Shown one piece after another: positions 12,788-55,966 of a stretch of DNA of 64,000 nucleotides. Location of the stretch: contig NC_043021.1 of assembly GCF_006345805.1 (NCBI RefSeq), positions 2,852,001 through 2,916,000 of the forward strand, in the 5' to 3' direction. The DNA is from Octopus sinensis. Taxonomy: Eukaryota. A program made the position numbers and the translations under genes. A model generated the notes under the pieces. The model saw nothing but the letters and a program-made list of their open reading frames with translations. It searched no databases and was not told the origin of the DNA. The stretch's first letter is position 1, and every line of letters starts with the position of its first letter.

Positions 12788-14012
12788 CAGGGACTGGACA
12801 AAATGATGGAAACACCTAGCATCATAATTTTGAAATATCTATAAAACCATCAAAAGCTTATTTATTTTTATGTTTTTTGATTTATTATTATTAGTATTGC
12901 TTAATGCTTTGCTAAAATTGCTGTTTCTTTTCAGATATCATCCGAAAAAGGTAATTAAAATTCATTAAAATGACTGATCTATTGGACCTTGAAAGAGGTC
13001 AAATTGTTGGTGATCATATGGCAGGCGCTAGCGTAACGAAAACAGCCAAAATGTTTGGTGTATCAAGAAGTACCATCACGAAAGTAATGACAGGCTTTGA
13101 GAAAGATGGAAAAACTGCCTCTTGGAAACAAAACTCCAGAAGAAAACCAAAAGTTTCAGATAAGGACCGTTGAACTCGTATGCGAATTGTCAGAAAAGAT
13201 CACAAAAGTACAGGTCTCAGAATTACTGCAGAGCTTAATGGCCTTGAGAACCCCTTTTCCACAAAAACTTTTCGCCTGGAGCTGCACAAAGCCAGATTTT
13301 ACAGGAGGGCTGCAATCAGAAATCCACTGCTTTCAAAAACAAACATTGCAAAAACCTACAGAATTGGTCCCTAGAGCAGTGGAAGAATGTTATTTTCTTG
13401 GATGAGTCATCCGTTACCTTATTTCCAACCACTGGCCAAGTATACGTGTGGAGACAGCCAAAAGAAGCATTTGACCCAGACTGCCTTCTTCCAACTATTA
13501 AACATGGAGGAGGATCTGTGATGATCTGTGGGGGCCTATATCTTGGAAATCCACTGGCTGAATGGTTTCCCTTCATGGCAGAATTAATAGTCAAGACTAT
13601 TTAAGCATTTTATCTCATCAAATTCATCCTATGGTTGCGGAACTGTTTTCAGAGGGAAACACAATCTTCCAGGATGATAATGCACCAATTTACACAGCTA
13701 AAGTTGTTAATGAATGACACGAGGAACATTCTAGTGAAGTTGAACATCTTATCTGGCCACCACAGTCCCCCAAATTTATGGGACATTTTAGAAAAACAAG
13801 TAAGGAGTCAATATCTTCCACCATCATCACTACAAGAACTGGAAACTGTTTTAGCTGAAGAATGGACAAAAATTCCTTTGGAAATAATTCAAACATTGTA
13901 TGAGTCCATACCGCATAGAATTCAAGCTGTAATTATTGCCAAAGGCGGTCCTACCGTATATTAAAATAAATTTGTTTGAAATCTTAAGGTGTTTCTATTA
14001 ATTTGTCCAATC
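12788..14012 (+). mobile_element. Tc1-family DNA transposon fossil in MSL3 intron 1 (frameshifted transposase)
   Basis: TA plus TIR CAGGGACTGGACAAAATGATGGAAACACCT, right TIR AGGTGTTTCTATTAATTTGTCCAATC. ORF pieces with HTH (ERGQIVG...AKMFGVSRSTI), DES, KHGGGSVM, QDDNAP, NLWDILE, AVIIAKGGPTVY. Confidence 0.92.
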
Positions 14013-20875: not shown

Positions 20876-22112
20876 GTAAATAACTTTTGTCATATTAAAC
20901 CCTGTCTCTCACTTTTTCTCTCTCTCTCACTCTCTCTCTCTCCTATATATCTATTTGTCCCCACTCTCTCTCCCCTATCTATCTATTCTATCTATCCCTC
21001 TCTTTCTCTATGTCTCTCTCTTTCTCTCTCTCTGGACACAACCATGACCAAATGGTTAATAAGTTTACTTTGCAATCATGAACTGGGATCAATTTCACTG
21101 TGTGAACTCTTCAGCAAGTCTTTCACCACACCTTGAGCTACACCTGAGCTTTGTGAATGAAATTGGGTTGACAAACCATTTGGAAACCTTTTGGATGGAT
21201 TTGGTCTTGTGATTAGACCCACAATGAGTAAAAGATTTTGTTGGGTACAACACGTGTTTCAAACCATTCTGGGTCTCTTCGGGTACATCAATAAAAAGTC
21301 TCACTAGAGATTTTCTGAGTCAGCTTACACACTGCTAGATGTCCATCAAATTCAAGAATGAATGAAAAACAGAGAAAAATTATTGAAATGCAAAAAATTC
21401 AAATATGAACGTGAAAATTATACATTCTAGTTTAGAGAAAATACAGGAGGATCAGTTAGTTATGATTTTATTCAACATATTCCCCTCTCAGATTCACACG
21501 CTTATCGCAGCAGTTGTGTGTGTGTGTCATCATCATCATCATCATCATCATCGTTTAACATCCGTTTTCCGCGCTAGCACGGGTTGGACGGTTTGACCGG
21601 GGTCTGGGAAGCCAGGGGCTGCTCCAGGCTCCAGTCTGATCTGGCAGAGTTTCTACGGCTGGATGCCCTTCCTAACGCCAACCACTCCGCGAGTGTAGTG
21701 GGTGCTTTTTACGTGCCACCTGCACAGGTGCCAGGCGAGGCTGGCAACGGCCACGGTCGGATTGGTGTATTTTACGTGCCACCGTCACGGAAGCCAGTCG
21801 AGGCGGCACTGGCATCGGCCACGAGTCGGATAGTGCTTTTTACGTACCACCAGACCAGGGGTCCTGGCTGGTTCAATTCGATTTCGATTTCGCTTGCCCC
21901 AACATGTCTTCGCAAGCAAAGGGGGTTGGCATGGGTGCCTGTTGTCGGATGAGGTTCTATATCGACTTCGCTTGCCTCAACAGGTCTTTGTGTCCAAGGG
22001 AGGAAAGGCATAATGTATGTATCTATTATTTTATTTATATATATATATAATGTATGTGTTTGTTATTTTATTTCCACACTGTATTAACATTGTGTTTCTA
22101 TATGTTTCACAG

Positions 22113-22923
22113 CCAACAGAAACTGTCATCGCCTCAGCCTGACACTTCCAGTTGTAGTCCTGTTAATAATAACACAAACAATTGCAGCAGCCAGTGTACC
22201 CCAGAATTCAGTTCTTCTTGCGAAACGGGTCAAAGAGATAAAATTCGCAGAATATCCGAGAACTGTGTGGCGAGGTCAAACTCTGAGGAAATCTCAACGG
22301 ACAGCGAGTGTTCAGTGTCTGTGGTTTCGGCACCACTGACGCGGCGGGTGACGAGACAGTCTGTCGCGGAAACGGCTAGAATCAGTCGGAAATCGAAGCA
22401 AAAGAAACGAATTAGTTCACGGAACACGGGTAGGTGGAAGCCGGTTGCTAAGTGCAGCAACAGTAGTACGGAAATCTCAAGTGATGGCTGTGGTAATGAC
22501 AACATCAATGGCAGCGGCGATTTCTCGGTGCCGTCTGCTAGCCTTTCCGCGACTCTTAGTTCTTCTATGTGCAGCAAAGATTCTAAACAAACTGCCAATC
22601 AAACGGACAGTTGGACGAATTGCCCCACCGAGGCTTCATTTCCGCAACACCAGCTGCACGATCAGCTGCAGTGGAACACACAGGGTGCAGTGAAGACCGA
22701 GACTGTTGACGCTGCATCTTCATCCTCTCCCACAACACCTTGCATGGCTTATTTCTGTGATTCGCATTTGAAAATTGAGGACAATCTGCCATTACCATCA
22801 TCCCCTTGCCCTCAAATTGCTGCTGTGATCAACCCGTCTTGTGCAGAATCAAATATGTTGTCACTTCGTCAGGCATTATTAAGTTCCTGTCATCGTTCAC
22901 CTTGTCAGGATCTTCTCAAAGAG
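22113..22923 (+). CDS. MSL3: MSL3-like exon 8: 811-nt Ser/Cys-rich insertion within the MRG domain
   Basis: Acceptor tttcacag|, donor GAG|gtaggt. Lies in the long non-repeat ORF 22054-22977. Phase 2 to 0 joins exons 7 and 9. Confidence 0.85.
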
Positions 22924-23089
22924 GTAGGTTTGTGCTTGCACGCACACACAGATGCATGCTCATGTACACATATATAAGTTTTTGGTGTTTTTTGTTTCAT
23001 ACCAGTCTTTATCTTTGCCAGTATGGTATATTCAGCTGTGTGTATTTTGTGAGTGGAGGTTAAGCAGAGAGAGAGAGAGAGAAAGACTG

Positions 23090-37307: not shown

Positions 37308-38188
37308 CAGGGGTTCTCAACCATATTTTATTTATGGACCCCTTTGCTTGCTATTTTATTCTGGTGGATCCCAATAGCCATTGGATGCTTTAAAAACTAG
37401 TTTTAGAGAAACTGCTTTCAAAATTCCGATTTTGTTTTTCACACATTAACTTGGCACGTAAAAAGCACCATCTGAATCGTGGCCGAAGCCAGTGCCGCCT
37501 CGACTGGCTTCCGTGCAGGTGGCACGTAAAAAGCACCATCCGAATCGTGGCCGATGCCAGTGCCGCCTCGACTGGCTTCCGTGCAGGTGGCACGTAAAAA
37601 GCACCATCCGAATCGTGGCCGAAGCCAGTGCCGCCTCGACTGGCTTCCGTGCAGGTGGCACGTAAAATGCACCAATCCGACCGTGGCCGTTGCCAGTGCC
37701 GCCTCGACTGTCTTCCGTGCAGGTGGCACGTAAACTGCACCAATCCGACCGTGGCCGATGCCAGCCGTGCCTGGCTCCAGTGCAGGTGGCACGTAAAAAG
37801 CACCCACTACACTCACGGAGTGGTTGGCGTTAGGAAGGGCATCCAGCTGTAGAAACATTGCCAGATAAGACTGGAGCCTGGTGCAGCCTTCTGGCTTCCC
37901 AGATCCCCGGTCGAACTGTCCAACCCATGCTAGCATGGAGAACGGACGTTAAACGTTGATGATGATGATGGTGAACTTGTGTAGATTGAACTATGTAAAA
38001 AATACTAGGGGAAAAAAAAAAGCTTAGCTGTTTCTTGCAAAACATACCAATACATACATCTAAAGTAAAATTTTTTCAGGGGACCATAAAATACTATTAT
38101 CAATCCCCAATTTACTGCTTTGTTGCATGTACCCACCAAAATCTTATTTGGACCCTCGGGCCATAAGGACCCCAGTTGTGAACCACTG
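37308..38188. mobile_element. hAT-like MITE nested in a piggyBac-like MITE, itself containing a retroposon
   Basis: CAGGGGTTCTCAACC...GTTGTGAACCACTG. 8-bp TSD GTTTAAGT/GTTTAAAT. Confidence 0.75.
37452..37972 (+). mobile_element. Retroposon family C ((GAT)n tail) with 5' tandem array of ~68-bp units
   Basis: Units start at 37453, 37521, 37589, 37657, 37725 and 37788, followed by GTGGTTGGCGTTAGGAAGGGCATCCAGCTGTAGAAAC core and GATGATGAT tail. Other copies near 14012(-), 15800(+), 19600(+), 20380(-), 21528(-), 23590(-), 27118(-) and 44100(+). Confidence 0.8.
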
Positions 38189-43767: not shown

Positions 43768-45287
43768 ACATAAATACATACATAGATATGCGACTGTGTG
43801 TGTACAGTGATAGATTCGAGGGTTTCGTTTATTTACGAGTTGATTTCTTAATGTGATATTTAAAAAAGAAAATCGAACTTACAAATTTTCCGATAAGCAA
43901 GTTTAGTCAAACACTTACAAAGCTTAATTAAGTTCAATTAAAAAGCAATGGCAAGCAAAGCATTGTAATTTGCGAAAAAATTTATCTGTGTGCAGGGTAC
44001 GCATTGCCCCCTCCAATGCCTTTTTTCATTACATTTCAGTTTTACTTCATAATATTTTTGAAGGATTCCTCATTATTTTCTTTTAATGCAGACCAGCACT
44101 GATAATGGTGCCACATCAAAAAGCACTGGTACCATGTAAAAACATTGGTGCTGGTGCCAGGTAATAAGAACCGTAGATATTACGTAAAAAAGTGCCACGT
44201 AAAAAAAACCCCACTGATGATGGTGATGCCACATCAAAAAGCACTGATGATGCCATGTAAAAAGCGCCCAGTGCGCTCTGTAAAGTGATTGGCGTTAGGA
44301 AGGGCATCAAGCCGTAGAAATATCCCAAAACTGGTGCCTGGTGCAGCCCTCTGGCTTGCCAGTTCCTGTCGAACCGTCCACCCCGTGCCAGCATGGAAAA
44401 CGGGCATTAAATGATGATAATGATGGTAGACTTAAGCCACCCCGTTCACCACCACCATCATCACACCACTTCCTGGTATCTTGGGTTACGTTCGGCAGAG
44501 AGTTCATTGTGCTTCAAGTATTCTGCTGCAAAGTAAGTCTCCGGTTTGAAGATACTTTCCTTCCCCCTTTCTGTCAGTTTTAGAGTCCCTGTAAAGGGTC
44601 ATGGCAGTATTCTCTGTCCTAATTATATTACAACAACAACGAGCAAATAAAATCTATTTTGTATTTTAAACCAGCCGAAAGAAACTAACTATCAGGACTT
44701 GGTCGACGAGAGACTTGCTTAGGGAAGACACACGGCCTCATTTCTGATAGAAATCGGTTGCCGTGGCTTTCCATCTAAGTCGGTGTGCTATTTCCGATTG
44801 AAGAATGGTTTGGAAACCAGACAACTAAAGAAAGCCACTAAGGAGATAGACGTGGCAGATGAAACTGGTTCAAGGGGGCTGTGGTTGATAAGAAACTGTA
44901 TGTGGAACCCTTCCGCTGGCAAATATTAATTCAATCCTAACTGTCCCATTAAGACGAAGCGTACAGGCTAAGGGACGTAACTTATGCGATCTGAGAAATC
45001 TGCTGATGATACGGGAATATTTTCGACATTGCAATGGATTTTAGAAGAGCCTGCAAAAATTCTGAGTATCTCCTGCAGTTTCTTCGTGGGTACAAAGCAT
45101 CTCCGCTTGTTTATTTCACCAGTAAAAACAAACAAACAAAACAAATAGTTCTCCGGATGGTATCTGCCGTGTGACTGTGTCTGTGCTGGAGCATTTGTGA
45201 CTCTTGTGCTTTACTTAAACATTTTAAGAGAAAGGGTTTTGTAGAAAATCCTCAACTAGGAATCTTTTACGAGAACTAATAAATACA

Positions 45288-45452
45288 GGCGCAGGAGTGG
45301 CTGTGTGGTAAGTAGCTTGCTAACCAACCACATGGTTCCGGGTTCAGTCCCACTGCGTGGCATCTTGGGCAAGTGTCTTCTGCTATAGCCCCGGGCCGAC
45401 CAATGCCTTGTGAGTGGATTTGGTAGACGGAAACTGAAAGAAGCCTGTCGTA

Positions 45453-45499
<47 letters not shown>

Positions 45500-45711
45500 G
45501 TCTGAATGTGTTTGCGTGTCTGTGTTTGTCTCCCTAGCATTGCTTGACAACCGATGCTGGTGTATTCACGTCCCCGTCACTTAGCGGTTCGGCAAAAGAG
45601 ACCGATAGAATAAGTACTGGGCTTACAAAGAATAAGTCCCGGGGTCGATTTGCTCGACTAAGGGCTGTGCTCCAGCATGGCCGCAGTCAAATGACTGAAA
45701 CAACTAAAGAG
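45288..45711 (+). mobile_element. SINE family B inserted in one unit of the tandem duplication
   Basis: Empty site visible at ~48670 in the sister unit. Confidence 0.88.
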
Positions 45712-45887
45712 TATGTCTGAAAACCCAGGATGCTTAGCTTGCCCACCGGAAGAAAATAAAGACGTTTTAAAAACAGTTGTACTAGAATAAAAGAAAAAAG
45801 AAGAAAACACTAGTCGAATGAAATGATTTAATTATTAATTAACATCCAAATATTTGTTGAAATTAACAAAAAAGTTTAGTTCTCTTT

Positions 45888-46038
45888 TTAACTACGAATT
45901 ACCCGTGAACATGGTAAAGTGATATAGAATGGACGCAGGACTGGTTGCTCTGTTATCTTGGTACAGCGTCCCAGCAAGGTTTTCATATCTGTTCCTGTTA
46001 TTGTGACAACTTGTTCGTCAGAGATCATGATGAAATAT
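45888..46038 (-). CDS. Hemopexin-repeat gene, distal alternative last exon A (KYFIMISDEQVVTITGTDMKTLLGRCTKITEQPVLRPFYITLPCSRVIRS*)
   Basis: Acceptor tttgtag|, phase 2 fits. Paralog of exon B. ATTAAA poly(A)-signal variant about 55 nt downstream (45827-45832, - strand). Confidence 0.72.
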
Positions 46039-46364
46039 CTACAAATAAAGACATTCGATGATAAAATTAAAATCATATATAGATACACAAATGCACACGC
46101 ACACACATTTATCAACAAATATACATGTACGCATGCATATTATGTTCACACTTCGGGAGACGAGAAAACGCTGAAAAGCTTGCAGAATTCGAACGCCGAG
46201 TTTGCTGTAAACCTTACAGCTGCGCTAACCACTGCCCCAAAGCTATATCAAAAGTTTGACCATCGAAATTGGAAGATTTAACCCAAATCATTTAGATTAC
46301 ATATAGCAGCAACTTGTCAGCGGAGAATATTATTAAATGTTTAATAATAATAATAATAATAATA

Positions 46365-46409
<45 letters not shown>

Positions 46410-46450
46410 TAGAGAGAGAGAGAGAGGAGAAGAGGGAGACAGTCAGAATT

Positions 46451-46489
<39 letters not shown>

Positions 46490-46574
46490 AAGAGGGAAGA
46501 GAGAGAGAGGAGAGAGGAGACAAGTCAGAAGTCAGAATTTATATATATATATAATCTATAATATATATATATAA

Positions 46575-46993
46575 TAATTTAATAAATAAAATATATGCAT
46601 ACATACATACATATATGTACGTACCTACATCTACATGTATATATACATGCGTTAAAAAAAGTCCGTTTCCTAGTTGTTTTTATGTTTTCGTTTCTCGTTG
46701 TGTTCTACGTTTATTTGTGGTGTCCTGTACTCACATATGTATATATACATGTAGATGTAGGTACGTACATATATGGTATGTATGCATATATTTTATTTAT
46801 TAAATTATTGTATGACTGAGCGCCCTCGCGTCGTTTCGTTTCGTTTCTTTTCTTTTCTCCCAGTAAGTTTTTATATATAATTAAGACGCGAACTCTGTAA
46901 TCCTTTGCTTGACCTTTTCTTCCTTCCTATCTGTCTTCCTCTTTGCCTGTCTCTCTCCTTCTTATTTTTTCACCCTTTCTGCTTTCCTTTCCG

Positions 46994-47026
<33 letters not shown>

Positions 47027-47705
47027 TCTCTCTCACTCCTCCTCATCTCTCTCACTGCCGAGTCGACTACCTACTTCCTTTCACTGTCAGCTTTCTACAA
47101 GTCAACATGACTTTTTTTGCGCTCTGAATTTTTCCATCGTCCAGACTTAAAAAAACAGCCCGTAATGTTGGTTTCTTTGTCCTGTTTTTATTCTTTATGT
47201 GTACTGTATTTTTTTGTATTTGTATTTTTATTTTGTATTTGTAATTGTATTTTATTTGTATTGCTTTTACGTCCTGTTCTTGTCACATTTTTTCTTTCCT
47301 TGTTTTTACCCCTCTGCAAAGGAATTTTATTTAATTCTTTTTCAGGAAGGACTGCATCGACGGGTCGTGTTCTGTACTTACCTTCGAAACACGCATTGAG
47401 TCGATCCAGGGACAGCTGATGAGGGAATATTCCTTGTATTGTTTGTCTTGTACTCTGTTTTTTCGTTGTTAAAAAAAAGTCCGTTTCCTAGTTGTTTTTA
47501 TGTTTTCGTTTCTCGTTGTGTTCTACGTTTATTTGTGGTGTCCTGTACTCATATATATATATATATATATGCATGTATATATACATGTAGATGTAGGTAC
47601 GTACATATATGTATGTATGCATATATTTTATTTATTTAATTATTGTATGACTGAGCGCCATCGCATCGTTTCGTTTCGTTTCTTTTCTTTTCTCCCAGTA
47701 AGTTA
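46575..47705. mobile_element. Non-autonomous element with direct ~220-bp terminal repeats and an inverted partial end (Penelope-like architecture)
   Basis: 46651-46870 is repeated at 47468-47705. 46580-46650 is the inverted complement of 46733-46803. Confidence 0.55.
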
Positions 47706-47947
47706 TATTATACTATATATATATAATATATATATATTATATATATATATATGACATACATACACACCACACTATATTTATACATACAACATATATAATA
47801 TATATGATGGACTATATCGTCTAGATACATATAGACGTTCAATTTGTATATTGTGATTAAATGTATGTGCTAGTTATACATACAGACATACCTACCATAC
47901 ATATATAGGTTGTATGTATGTATATATATATATATATATACGATATA

Positions 47948-47987
<40 letters not shown>

Positions 47988-48102
47988 TATATATATATAT
48001 GTGTGTGTGTATATATATATATGGTATTATATATATATATATACATACATGCATACAGCACGCACACACACACACACATATATATATACTATACACATGT
48101 AT

Positions 48103-48133
<31 letters not shown>

Positions 48134-48438
48134 CATATAATACATGCATATACTATATATATACAAACATATATGTGTATATATATGTATATACAGAAAA
48201 GGAAGAATTTTGATTATCCCTATGTGGTGAGTTGTAATATATATAAGAAATTATAGAAGGAAAATGCACACACTTTACATAGTTTTAATATAATTTTTAA
48301 TGTATCGACCGGTTTCACTTTCGTTATTCATGACATTTAGATTTGATAATTTAAATGCGTAATTTCGTAAGAAGAAATTTTTGGTCCATATTGTGTGTGA
48401 TAGTTTTGACACACACACATACACACACACACATACAC

Positions 48439-48469
<31 letters not shown>

Positions 48470-48674
48470 ACACACACACACACACATGAAGCAGCAGTTG
48501 TGTAGAAGAATAGAAATGGAAGAAGAGAGGTGTGAGAGGGAGAAAGAGAAAAAATGATATAGAGAAAAGGAAACAGAGTAAATAGCAATGGGAGAGCAGG
48601 TTAAAAGAAGACTACTTTGACTGAATATGAACTTATCCTCAACTAGGAATCTTTTACGAGAACTAAGAAATATG

Positions 48675-49002
48675 TCTGAAAACCCAGGATGCTTAGCTTG
48701 TCCACCGGAAGAAAATAAAGACGTTTTAAAAACAGTTGTACTAGAATAAAAGAAAAAAGAAAACACTAGTCGAATGAAATGATCTGAAAACCTAGGATGC
48801 TTAACTTTTCCACCGGAAAAAAATAAAGACGTTTTAAAAACAGTTGTACTAGAATAAAAGAAAAAAAGAAAACACTAGTCGAATGAAATGATCTGAAAAC
48901 CTAGGATGCTTAACTTCTCCACCGGAAAAAAATAAAGACGTTTTAAAAACAGTTGTACTAGAATAAAAGAAAAAGAAGAAAACACTAGTCGAATGAAATG
49001 AT
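48675..49002. repeat. Three tandem ~108-bp units (single copy in the sister unit)
   Basis: TCTGAAAACCyAGGATGCTTA... starts at 48675, 48783 and 48892. Confidence 0.88.
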
Positions 49003-49115
49003 TTAATTATTAATTGACATCAAATATTTGTTGAAATTAACAAAAAAGTTTAGTTCTCTTTTTAACTACGAATTATGTCCCTTGAACATGGAAAAGAGAC
49101 GGCACGCATGACTGG

Positions 49116-49209
49116 CTATTTTGTTATCTTGTTACAGCGTCCCAGCAAGGTTTTCATAACTTTTTCTGATTCTGTGACAATTTGTTCGTCAGCGTTCATG
49201 GTGAAATAT
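49116..49209 (-). CDS. Hemopexin-repeat gene, proximal alternative last exon B (KYFTMNADEQIVTESEKVMKTLLGRCNKITK*)
   Basis: Acceptor tttgtag|, phase 2 fits the previous exon. Retains terminal LLGRC (cf. MMP hemopexin WLGC). TAG follows five residues after the Cys. Confidence 0.7.
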
Positions 49210-49532
49210 CTACAAATAAAGACATTCGATTATAAAATTAAAATCATACATAGATACACAAATGCACACGCACACACATTTATCAACAAATATACATGTA
49301 CGCATGCATATTATGTTCACACTTCGGGAGACGAGAAAACGCTGAAAAGCTTGCAGAATTCGAACGCCGAGTTTGCTGTAAACCTTACAGCTGCGCTAAC
49401 CACTGCCCCAAAGCTATATCAAAAGTTTGACCATCGAAATTGGAAGATTTAACCCAAATCATTTAGATTACATATAGCAGCAACTTGTCAGCGGAGAATA
49501 TTATTAAATGTTTAATAATAATAATAATAATA

Positions 49533-50090
49533 AATGCCCTGATGCAGTGCCAGGCAGTGGCTCTCATGGCTTCTGATCTTAACCGATTGGAAGTGTTATC
49601 ATGTACATTGTTTTGTCTTGGTATAAAAGATGGACTACAGCAAATATTCTGCTCAATACCACAGATTTGCTTGTTAGTTGTTTGACCGTAACCAGTTGAG
49701 CATGTCCCTTAGTGGCTGACGATATGTGCGTCTCTGATCACGAGCAGAAGCAGTGAGGGAGCATCATAGTGATGTGTTGAGAGGGATGCTTTGGGGTTTG
49801 AATAATTCACCACTGGAAACATGGGTGTTTCGTTCAACATCATTAAACAACCCTTATTCAAGGACCTTTTGGACGGGATAGGCTACTCGACCAGAAGAAA
49901 ATTCTAACTGGGCCCCACCTGCAAGGTCATGTGCTGTTTATCTTGATATGAGATCACCATGTCGCGCACATATGGCTGTGATGCATGTGCCTGGTGTACC
50001 CTTATCAGACGGGTAGTCATGATGGGTATACTGGGCTTCGTATATTTTACCCCAGTGTCACTTTGATGGCATGAACTGCTCTCTCACTCA
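49533..50090. mobile_element. (AAT)n-inserted repeat element, with shorter copies at ~7780-7935 (opposite strand) and ~24890-25115
   Basis: Shared block GTGCCTGGTGTACCCTTATCAG...GTCACTTTGATGGCATG..CTCTCACTCA, always abutting trinucleotide microsatellite tracts. Confidence 0.65.
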
Positions 50091-50189
50091 ATAATAATAA
50101 CGATAATAACATATACAATACATACATACATACATACATCCATACATACATACATACATACATACATACATACATACATACAACATACA

Positions 50190-50269
<80 letters not shown>

Positions 50270-50318
50270 AATATTAAATTTCTAATATCTCATAGAGATA
50301 TGTACGTTGGTGGGAAGA

Positions 50319-50577
50319 TAGAATGGTTATCGTCAATTTAACGTGACAGTAGGGGATTCCACTACCGCTGTTAGCCCTAGGAAGCATCGACCCTCCTGAT
50401 GCTTCGACACATTTTCTTCCCGTGTCCTTATATATTTGTCTCGCCTTCGTAAATATATAAGGACACAGGAAGAAAATGTGTCGAAGCCCTCAGGAAGGCG
50501 TCGATGCTTCCTAGGGCTAAACAGCGGTGGTGTAATCCCCTACTGTCACGTTAAATTGACAGTATACAACCATTCTA
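50319..50577. repeat. Foldback palindrome (~120-bp arms, ~13-nt loop), probable MITE
   Basis: TAGAATGGTT...TGTCCTTATATATTT-loop-AAATATATAAGGACAC...AACCATTCTA. Confidence 0.85.
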
Positions 50578-50731
50578 TATATGCATATATATATATATAT
50601 TATATATATATATTATATATATAGAAGAGAGATAGAAAAGGAGGCATGTAAGCGTTCAGTGTTTGCCGAACAACCTGCACAGATGATTTGTATATTGTGA
50701 TTAATGTGGTGTATATATATATATATATATA

Positions 50732-50775
<44 letters not shown>

Positions 50776-50835
50776 ATCTATTAAGTGTAGGAAGAAATGG
50801 AGCTGAACGACGATTTAACAAAATTCCTTTTTATT

Positions 50836-50920
50836 ATTTTCTACATATGTTTCGAAGGCTGCAAAGTCCCTAATTCGGATTGAATAAGGAGTCCATTTTG
50901 CACGCTCTCTTCAGGAAAAT
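50836..50920 (-). ncRNA. Type I hammerhead ribozyme motif (Penelope/retrozyme-type, minimal stem III)
   Basis: Minus strand reads ATTTTC-CTGAAGA-G[long stem II]C-GAAAC-ATAT-GTA-GAAAAT. Core CUGAnGA and GAAA intact, GUA triplet, perfect 6-bp stem I, palindromic ACATATGT stem III. Confidence 0.7.
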
Positions 50921-51430
50921 CCAGGAACTTAATTCTCCAACAAAATGCACAACACTTTTCGACAAACGCTCACGAGGAGCCCATGGAATAAATGGCACAA
51001 ACTGTCTATCTATATGCGTTGACGCCAGACTGGGTGAAAGCAGAAGAGATTGTCCGTTGAGATAGTCAAGGTCAGAATCCGGTTAGCAGAAGGGGTGGGA
51101 CAGGAAATCAAAGAGTGTGAATGTATTCTGTATGACTGGTGTTTATATTTGAATTATTTAAGAATGAGTGTTAGAGTGTTTAGTGCGGAGAAATTGCTTT
51201 CATGTATGTGTGTGTGCGTCTATGTATGTGTGACAGTGTATTTCGAAGGCAGAAAGAGAGAGAGATATAGCAGGTATTAATGGTCAATAACTGAAAAACT
51301 GTGTCTGTGTGTTCGCATGTGACCACTTGATAGAGAGAGAGGGTGTCCACAATGGCCATTGCAGGATACAGTGCTGCTGTCACGGATGGCAGCAGTTCTT
51401 ATACTAACAGGAAGGGATATCCCCTTTCAA

Positions 51431-51471
<41 letters not shown>

Positions 51472-51962
51472 ATATAATACAGAAAAGGAAGAATTTCTAT
51501 TATCCCCACGCGGTGAGTTGTAATATATATATAAGAAATTATAGAAGGAAAATGCACACACGTTACATAGTTTTAATACAATCTTTAATGTATCGACCGG
51601 TTTCACTTTCGCTATTCATGACATTTAGATTTGATTATTTAAATGCGTAATTTCGTAAGAAGAAATTTTTTGGTCCATGTTGTGTGTAATAGTTTTGACA
51701 CACACACACACACACACACACATGAAGCAGCAGTTGTGTAGAATAATAGAAATGGGAAGAAGAAAGGTGTGAGAGGGAGAAAGAGAAAAAATGATATAGA
51801 GAGAAAAGGAAAGATAGAGTAAATAGCAATGGGAGAGCAGGTTAAAAGAAGGGTACTCTGACTGAATATGAACTTATCACATCTGTTTACTAGTTATCAC
51901 TGCATCAAAAAGAAAAAGGAAAGGAAAACAACCCATTTCTGATGAGAAAAAGGTTCACTTAC

Positions 51963-52111
51963 TTTTCACCTGAAAGGAAAGCGATTTCTTTGTTGACTGA
52001 CAGAATGGCGTCTAAATGGTTTGGTACACCAATGAAGAAGTCGTGGTACTTCAAAGTTGATTCGGGAGTCAACTGTTCATAATATGGCACCCATTCTCTT
52101 ATACTGTCATT
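51963..52111 (-). CDS. Hemopexin-repeat gene exon (NDSIREWVPYYEQLTPESTLKYHDFFIGVPNHLDAILSVNKEIAFLSGE)
   Basis: Acceptor cctttcag|, donor |gtaagt. F.GVP..LDA...F..G.KY matches the hemopexin repeat. Phase 0 to 2. Confidence 0.85.
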
Positions 52112-54660: not shown

Positions 54661-54812
54661 TTTGAATACAAACACTCGCTCTACGTGTTCAAAATCTTTC
54701 ATGATCATGGCAGCGTCCGGTTTACTGAACACCTCATCACTGTGAGTTTTGGGGTAGCCGTAGTTTAAGTAGAACTTACCACCACTTAGAGAATACGACC
54801 ATACCTGGTTGT
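54661..54812 (-). CDS. Hemopexin-repeat gene exon (DNQVWSYSLSGGKFYLNYGYPKTHSDEVFSKPDAAMIMKDFEHVERVFVFK)
   Basis: Polypyrimidine tract plus acacag| acceptor, donor |gtaagt. GYPK, PDAA and terminal FVFK are hemopexin-blade motifs. Phase 1 to 0. Confidence 0.85.
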
Positions 54813-55866: not shown

Positions 55867-55966
55867 NNNNNNNNNNNNNNNNNNNNNNNNNNNNNNNNNN
55901 NNNNNNNNNNNNNNNNNNNNNNNNNNNNNNNNNNNNNNNNNNNNNNNNNNNNNNNNNNNNNNNNNN
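55867..55966. other. Assembly gap (100 N)
   Basis: Run of N. Confidence 0.99.

Follow-up and report, generated by a model that had tools for sequence, protein, structure and literature searches.

The 64,000-nt stretch of O. sinensis DNA analyzed here (NC_043021.1, positions 2,852,001 to 2,916,000; hereafter the window) carries on its minus strand the 3′ part of a gene with two last exons. Used as a query, the penultimate exon identified one protein among four candidates, an O. vulgaris protein labeled 'metalloproteinase-19-like' in its source annotation. Searches with O. vulgaris proteins P0001 and P0002 (tblastn) located the third-last coding exon, which encodes hemopexin blades II-III, at 54661..54812 (49/49 residues identical), and the penultimate coding exon, likewise identical to P0001 over 49/49 residues, at 51963..52111. 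The phase-2 donor of the latter, at 51963, is common to both last exons. The coding part of the proximal last exon (49116..49209) comprises 30 codons and a TAG, ends five residues past the closing Cys and has the length of the corresponding part of O. bimaculoides P0122. That of the distal last exon (45888..46038) comprises 49 codons and a TAG; the putative ancestral stop is read as CAA, resulting in 19 extra residues with a fifth Cys. A candidate poly(A) signal ATTAAA, identified by motif only, lies about 200 nt behind the acceptor in each copy (49002..49007 and 45827..45832, both on the minus strand). Over the five exons shared by both forms, all 191 residues are identical to O. vulgaris, and the window, judged from its sequence, derives from an Octopus very close to that species.

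The gene is split in the assembly. A gap of 100 N is found at 55867-55966, 1 kb above the third-last exon, and three 5′ exons are located on a 3-kb unplaced contig (G000:C8042:616-2402); these exons are absent from the 200 kb beyond the window, and the catalytic exons (residues 125-323) were not found in the O. sinensis assembly. O. vulgaris P0001 combines propeptide, matrixin and hemopexin domains: it contains a cysteine switch PRCGLPD, identically encoded on C8042, a matrixin domain (PF00413, 160 bits, cut-off 24) with the motif HEFGHTLGLPH, and a four-blade hemopexin domain (PF00045, 23.3 bits, cut-off 21.3) closed by its first and last Cys, C261 and C451. On these three domains, the gene product is classified as a matrix metalloproteinase (MMP; M10A). 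Zinc-dependent proteolysis and secretion are predicted, the N-terminus of P0001 being hydrophobic. Further MMP paralogues with 50-60% identity in the catalytic exon are present on seven contigs of the same assembly (C13055, C10921, C18, C20, C811, C3 and C25:0.85-0.88 Mb), none of which matches the duplicated last exon. The O. maya 'MMP-19' is probably another paralogue, as the primers in the accessible part of that report match neither the window nor C8042 within three mismatches (PMC8976471). Elsewhere in the window, a Ser-rich open frame of 308 codons on the plus strand (22051-22977) is probably an exon of a neighboring gene, and a 68-nt tandem repeat of five copies lies within a dispersed repeat at 37384-37791. 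Two adjacent plus-strand open frames at 13248-13964 read like what we take to be a broken Tc1/mariner transposase.

In line with the preliminary description, the tandem duplication is limited to the terminal exon. Unit 1 (48638..51878, 3241 nt) holds intron sequence, the proximal last exon and its 3′ region; unit 2 (45251..48637, 3387 nt) holds intron sequence with inserted repeats, the distal last exon and its 3′ region. Both units lie on the minus strand and join at GAT, a 3-nt microhomology. The duplicated segment starts 85 nt past the donor of the penultimate exon and therefore includes the last exon only. At 49209 as well as at 46038 we recovered the features previously listed for both copies, namely a TTTGTAG acceptor, completion of the phase-2 codon from the 51963 exon and the sequence MKTLLGRC. 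Two homologous 3′ coding exons are thus found in tandem within one gene, and a search of the genome DNA with exon plus flank returned two full-length matches among the 18 listed, the other 16 being scraps of 44-90 nt.

Only about 1.2 kb of the two units can still be aligned; their middles barely align and carry different repeats. Specific to unit 2 is a high-copy repeat at 46640-47720 (2596 first-look candidates, the best others 94% identical), bracketed by direct repeats at 46661-46879 and 47479-47717, a layout resembling that of Penelope-like pseudo-LTRs. The 3′ region of this unit additionally contains a SINE-like insertion near 45285-45713. Specific to unit 1 are a 260-nt imperfect palindrome (87%) in the intron at 50318-50578, perhaps a small inverted-repeat element, and a 109-nt tandem repeat of three copies in the 3′ region (48675..49002). 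Contigs of sequence runs X7 and X8, described below, show a 111-nt step back at this repeat, which is therefore not peculiar to this assembly.

Both ends of the gene are already present in the public O. vulgaris annotation, as two adjacent records of 456 aa (CAI9740584.1, proximal end) and 475 aa (CAI9740583.1, distal end) that are identical over their first 426 residues, up to the junction. According to the available part of the source, splice forms were added to that annotation by transcript-based PASA updates (bioRxiv 2023.05.16.540928). Public sequence runs X7, X8, X10 and X16 (four of the 24 listed) were compared over 45715-46420 only. None of the listed runs is recorded as RNA; X7, X8 and X16 were guessed to be RNA, X10 is genomic in pattern, and X8 and X16 are marked as transcript-derived because of their spliced junctions. 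The X8 proximal-type contig has 255 loose letters, the first 30 of which are the exact end of the 51963 exon. In X16, and in that run alone, a distal-type contig carries 22 letters of the 51963 exon upstream, compared with a bridging standard of 31 in the tool used. This contig also carries A20 and R23, both of which mark O. vulgaris P0002; a proximal counterpart did not appear among the pieces displayed for this run. The word length used to assemble these contigs is presumably 31. The 22 letters and the 8 nt common to both exons add up to 30, which is what the overlap at a 31-mer fork should be, and with this word length the X16 fork would imply both junctions in that run. A retrocopy is an unlikely source of the spliced contigs, since the penultimate exon, whose last 30 nt form their loose end, has a single genomic locus.

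Both exon types also occur in X10 and in X7, in the latter without a junction piece. The distal exon of X7 and X8 matches that of the window; distal-type contigs of these runs continue unspliced into the intron, and no distal junction was seen in them. Contig depths in X7 and X8 are 1264-1543 for the proximal and 76-167 for the distal type, one figure per contig that does not represent an isoform ratio. Of the two junctions that the preliminary description proposed to look for, 51963->49209 is hence present in X8, while 51963->46038 is found in X16 only, with 22 nt on its upstream side, and not in X7 or X8. Its proposal of alternative last-exon choice in one hemopexin-domain gene is supported by the O. 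vulgaris isoforms and by the contigs joining 51963 to each copy, and we consider it very probable that the gene has alternative last exons.

Comparison with other species suggests which end came first. O. bimaculoides P0122/P0123 ends in CKKISK, the length of the proximal exon (known from annotation only, not from DNA), and P0003, Argonauta P0128 and P0129 end two to four residues past the Cys, so that O. bimaculoides and three other close relatives all end two to five residues past it. Relative to O. bimaculoides, the distal copy shows seven clear changes (N5I, I10V, E13I, S14T, E15G, K16T and K30E) plus the lost stop, and the proximal copy two (S6A and D17V), positions 3 and 26 being ambiguous. 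At the nucleotide level the asymmetry between the distal and proximal branches is 11 versus 2 (p 0.022). The proximal exon is likely to represent the ancestral type and the distal exon the derived type. The short copy had been viewed as a potential new, shorter C-terminus; instead, the short end appears to be the ancestral form and the distal tail to be former 3′ UTR carrying an extra Cys, C469. The reading frame and stop position of the distal exon are identical in O. vulgaris. The accessible text of bioRxiv 2023.05.16.540928 dates the split between O. vulgaris and its sister species at 2.5 Mya and that from O. bimaculoides at 34 Mya; if the window species is the sister of O. vulgaris, the duplication falls between these two splits.

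Divergence between the two units is markedly uneven. Earlier counts over the 30 shared codons (13 substitutions, 11 amino-acid changes and no purely synonymous codon) proved exact, as did the near-identity of the intron flanks, with 2 differences in 303 nt between 49210..49512 and 46039..46341, both on the minus strand; an (ATT)n repeat bounds the upstream side. The reported 6-nt and 3-nt indels are confirmed, but since they lie past the stop of the 49209 copy, they affect coding sequence in the 46038 copy alone. From the acceptor to the distal stop, 21 of 145 aligned nt differ. The downstream region, described as almost identical, is so for the following 79 nt (one substitution and one indel) but not further out, where divergence is 3-6% plus indels. 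Outer non-coding stretches differ at 6/149, 12/217, 8/130 and 1/31 positions, or 27/527 (5.1%) in total. The duplication is thus about 5% old, with a flank too similar and an exon too different for that age. As a consequence, the contrast between exon and intron drawn in the preliminary description is inflated by homogenization of the flank: relative to the outer unit, the exon excess is about 3-fold, not 20-fold.

Several observations point to gene conversion, for which a test of the flanks had been suggested. Divergence between copies is 0.7% in the flank versus 5.1% in outer DNA (p 0.0003), and an identical run of 284 columns has a probability of about 5e-6 at 5.1%. The flank piece of X10 (organism D; one contig) differs from the window at 5 letters and one gap in 291, or about 2%, so that strong conservation of the flank is unlikely; the flank is thus more alike between paralogues than between species and than its age predicts. 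At codon 20, moreover, the window has ACC and X10 has AGC, each in both of its copies, and the proximal contigs of X7 and X8 disagree with one another, as is compatible with copies exchanging sequence. These data are best read as gene conversion, and we regard local conversion of the flank as probable, with good confidence.

We next consider the divergence of the exon itself. Between copies, dN is 0.19 and dS 0.052 (dN/dS 3.7), with a replacement-to-synonymous ratio of 12:1, and dS equals the outer non-coding yardstick of 5.1%. The positive-selection pattern inferred earlier reaches significance when the exon is compared with outer non-coding DNA (13/90 versus 27/527, p 0.004), but not on the two copies alone, for which dN/dS is not significantly above 1 (p 0.16-0.18, or 0.09 with transition bias). 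The divergence peak remains significant after correction for scanning (p 0.001), and loses significance when the yardstick is set at its upper 95% limit of 7.4% (p 0.09). Between the window and O. vulgaris, 0/191 residues differ in the shared exons versus 6/79 in the last exons (p 0.0005), the proximal exon contributing 3/30 (p 0.002). All six listed distal-exon variants in X10 and X16 are replacements, two of them within one codon; the differences total nine, of which the remaining three could be synonymous. Pooling gives a replacement-to-synonymous ratio of 18:1 (p 0.02-0.055). However, 5 of the 13 changes sit in codons 13-16, and once this cluster is counted as one event, p is 0.085 for the comparison with outer DNA and 0.18 for the branch asymmetry, the tests ranging from p 0.05 to 0.18. 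Adaptive divergence of the distal exon is likely but unproven, and we give it about an even chance or slightly better.

The same data could be explained, with a lower probability that makes this a tentative alternative, if the distal exon were a minor, leaky copy under relaxed constraint. It would be spliced occasionally through its kept acceptor, its changes would reflect neutral drift and one complex mutation, and the divergence peak would persist because diverged DNA converts poorly. The non-significant dN/dS of the two copies, the clustering of five changes, the loss of the stop with its predicted disordered tail and the exclusively unspliced distal contigs in X7 and X8 all agree with such decay. 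So do changes at conserved positions: distal N5I alters a position at which 77% of 105 relatives have D or N, and G23R in the O. vulgaris distal exon affects a position that is Gly in 66%. The domain is, in addition, fast-evolving anyway, given that 26/154 residues of the shared exons differ from O. bimaculoides. Yet relaxed constraint predicts a rate near 5%, compared with the 14-17% seen. It also sits poorly with the frame and stop position kept in O. vulgaris, with the rapid change of the proximal exon between species, and with the tail indels, both of which are multiples of three, in contrast to six of the seven non-coding indels in the units.

Models of both O. vulgaris isoforms were built with 107-row alignments. 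The models share the same fold with blade IV intact (pLDDT 91 and 89), and the best structural match is proMMP-1 (1su3, E 1.8e-35). The exon is predicted to encode strands 426-431 and 436-439/441, the last helix and the closing Cys, in agreement with the earlier assignment of the changes to the fourth blade. In the models, the cluster of changes falls on residues 436-442, at the end of what is predicted to be the outer strand of blade IV and in the loop after it, and it raises the hydropathy of codons 10-17 from 0.06 to 0.86. The tail (residues 457-475) is predicted to be disordered (pLDDT <50); a hydropathy scan rejected a GPI or membrane anchor, the tail being too short and too polar (best 15-residue hydropathy 1.0).

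Taken together, we lean, somewhat beyond an even chance, towards an explanation that combines duplication, alternative ends, selection on the distal copy and conversion of the flank. A tandem duplication would have given the octopus MMP gene two last exons, whose frames are open in two species and each of which is found joined to the upstream exon in public contigs. Transcripts would splice to 49209 and end at the ATTAAA there, presumably the main form, or skip 49209 in favor of 46038. Of the two copies, the proximal one has likely retained the ancestral end, and selection has likely driven the divergence of the distal one where the outer strand of blade IV is predicted, with the adjoining intron likely homogenized by gene conversion. 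The distal product would be a secreted MMP with an unchanged catalytic domain; its blade-IV edge would have lost charge (ESEK to ITGT), and its flexible tail and unpaired Cys could alter partner binding or self-association. By analogy and from the models, the likeliest function may be to present partners with a different surface, perhaps combined with dimerization through a disulfide bond at C469. More speculatively, and with rather low confidence, the locus may represent neofunctionalization in progress within a single gene: a blade-IV edge rebuilt by selection and a 3′ UTR recruited as a Cys-bearing tail within a few million years, held against ongoing conversion, with last-exon choice determining whether the product stays monomeric or binds new partners or dimerizes via the free Cys.

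It is improbable that, within this preferred explanation, divergence was driven by prey or pathogens in an arms race of the kind seen in venom proteins. The product would be a secreted protease with a fast-changing surface, and metalloproteases, of unstated family in the accessible text, occur in posterior salivary gland proteomes of O. vulgaris. Weakly opposing such a driver, the catalytic-side exons are unchanged between species, and the terms 'matrix metalloproteinase', 'MMP19' and the O. bimaculoides locus number occur zero times in one supplement of the salivary gland paper, in which naming may differ. Searches of literature and supplements yielded no gene-specific proteomic data, with no match in three of the four supplement files of PMC9699675, and the toxin-like role raised in the preliminary description found no link to venom in the text or supplements covered.

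Still less credible is that polishing of the assembly, and not gene conversion, made the intron flanks nearly identical, a reading that would leave the rest of the explanation standing. At 46169, both window copies do carry a letter not shown by X7, X8 or X10. Against this, the two exon types of X10 leave from one common 30-nt upstream word, X7, X8 and X10 each show a single flank piece (contigs can drop variants), and two real differences persist between the window flanks. Finally, we discount almost entirely that a misassembly has set two alleles of a single locus side by side as the two units, a concern raised earlier. The assembly is broken nearby (the gap at 55867 and the 5′ exons on C8042), and the X10 exon pieces have similar depths (5.1 and 5.3) with a common downstream piece of about 10, as expected of alleles but also of paralogues. 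However, both ends are assigned to one gene in the assembly of another species, and both types occur in all five sources able to show both (window, O. vulgaris record, X7, X8 and X10; probability at most 0.03 if alleles, with the reservation that RNA samples may have been pooled). The units, moreover, join at a 3-nt microhomology and not a long overlap, and are 5% apart with unalignable middles.

In the open literature, to which the search was confined, we found no paper describing this duplication. Known tandem-exon swaps of C-termini are mostly ancient, and their first steps are rarely visible. In the octopus case, the breakpoints and a conversion tract are preserved, variants are segregating and an outgroup shows the ancestral end, which makes the early fate of such a copy, selection or leak, directly testable. 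Its scope is one gene in one species group, and no general rule is changed by it.

The arrangement has clear counterparts. In human, as reported in the available portions of two studies, 77 of 236 substitution events derived from tandem exon duplication are C-terminal, and, as in octopus, a duplicated 3′ coding exon yields homologous C-termini through alternative poly(A) or last-exon use (PMC8373072, PMC9741552). Unlike the human events, which are mostly older than 500 million years with conservative changes, the octopus case is young (about 5% neutral divergence), still converting and marked by its 12:1 excess of replacement changes. Exon 5 of the human red and green opsins, under gene conversion, similarly combines high exon divergence with low divergence of the flanking intron, and the octopus exon likewise groups by orthologue across species (3/30 versus 11/30 residues), as far as the accessible text allows comparison (PMC3924837). 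In contrast to the opsins, the octopus duplicates are two exons within one gene, their peak is built on 13-21 changes and they are known from sequence alone. Drosophila Mmp1 is also a single MMP gene with several C-termini generated by 3′ alternative splicing; there, according to the part of the article available, the isoforms keep the whole hemopexin domain and differ beyond it (secreted versus GPI-anchored), whereas in octopus a homologous copy takes the place of half of blade IV (PMC5353688). With respect to function, homodimers of MMP-9 and MT1-MMP need strand 4 of blade IV, with a conflicting MT1-MMP result implicating blades II/III, in the accessible text of PMC3678729. The octopus changes cluster comparably at the predicted outer strand of blade IV, where, unlike for the human enzymes, binding is predicted by analogy only. 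With half of blade IV as their only difference, the two ends of the gene offer natural variants of an MMP at a site that has been linked to dimerization in the human enzymes. As a whole, the locus is a young and well-preserved case of tandem-exon C-terminal substitution with a divergence peak, a mechanism already known.
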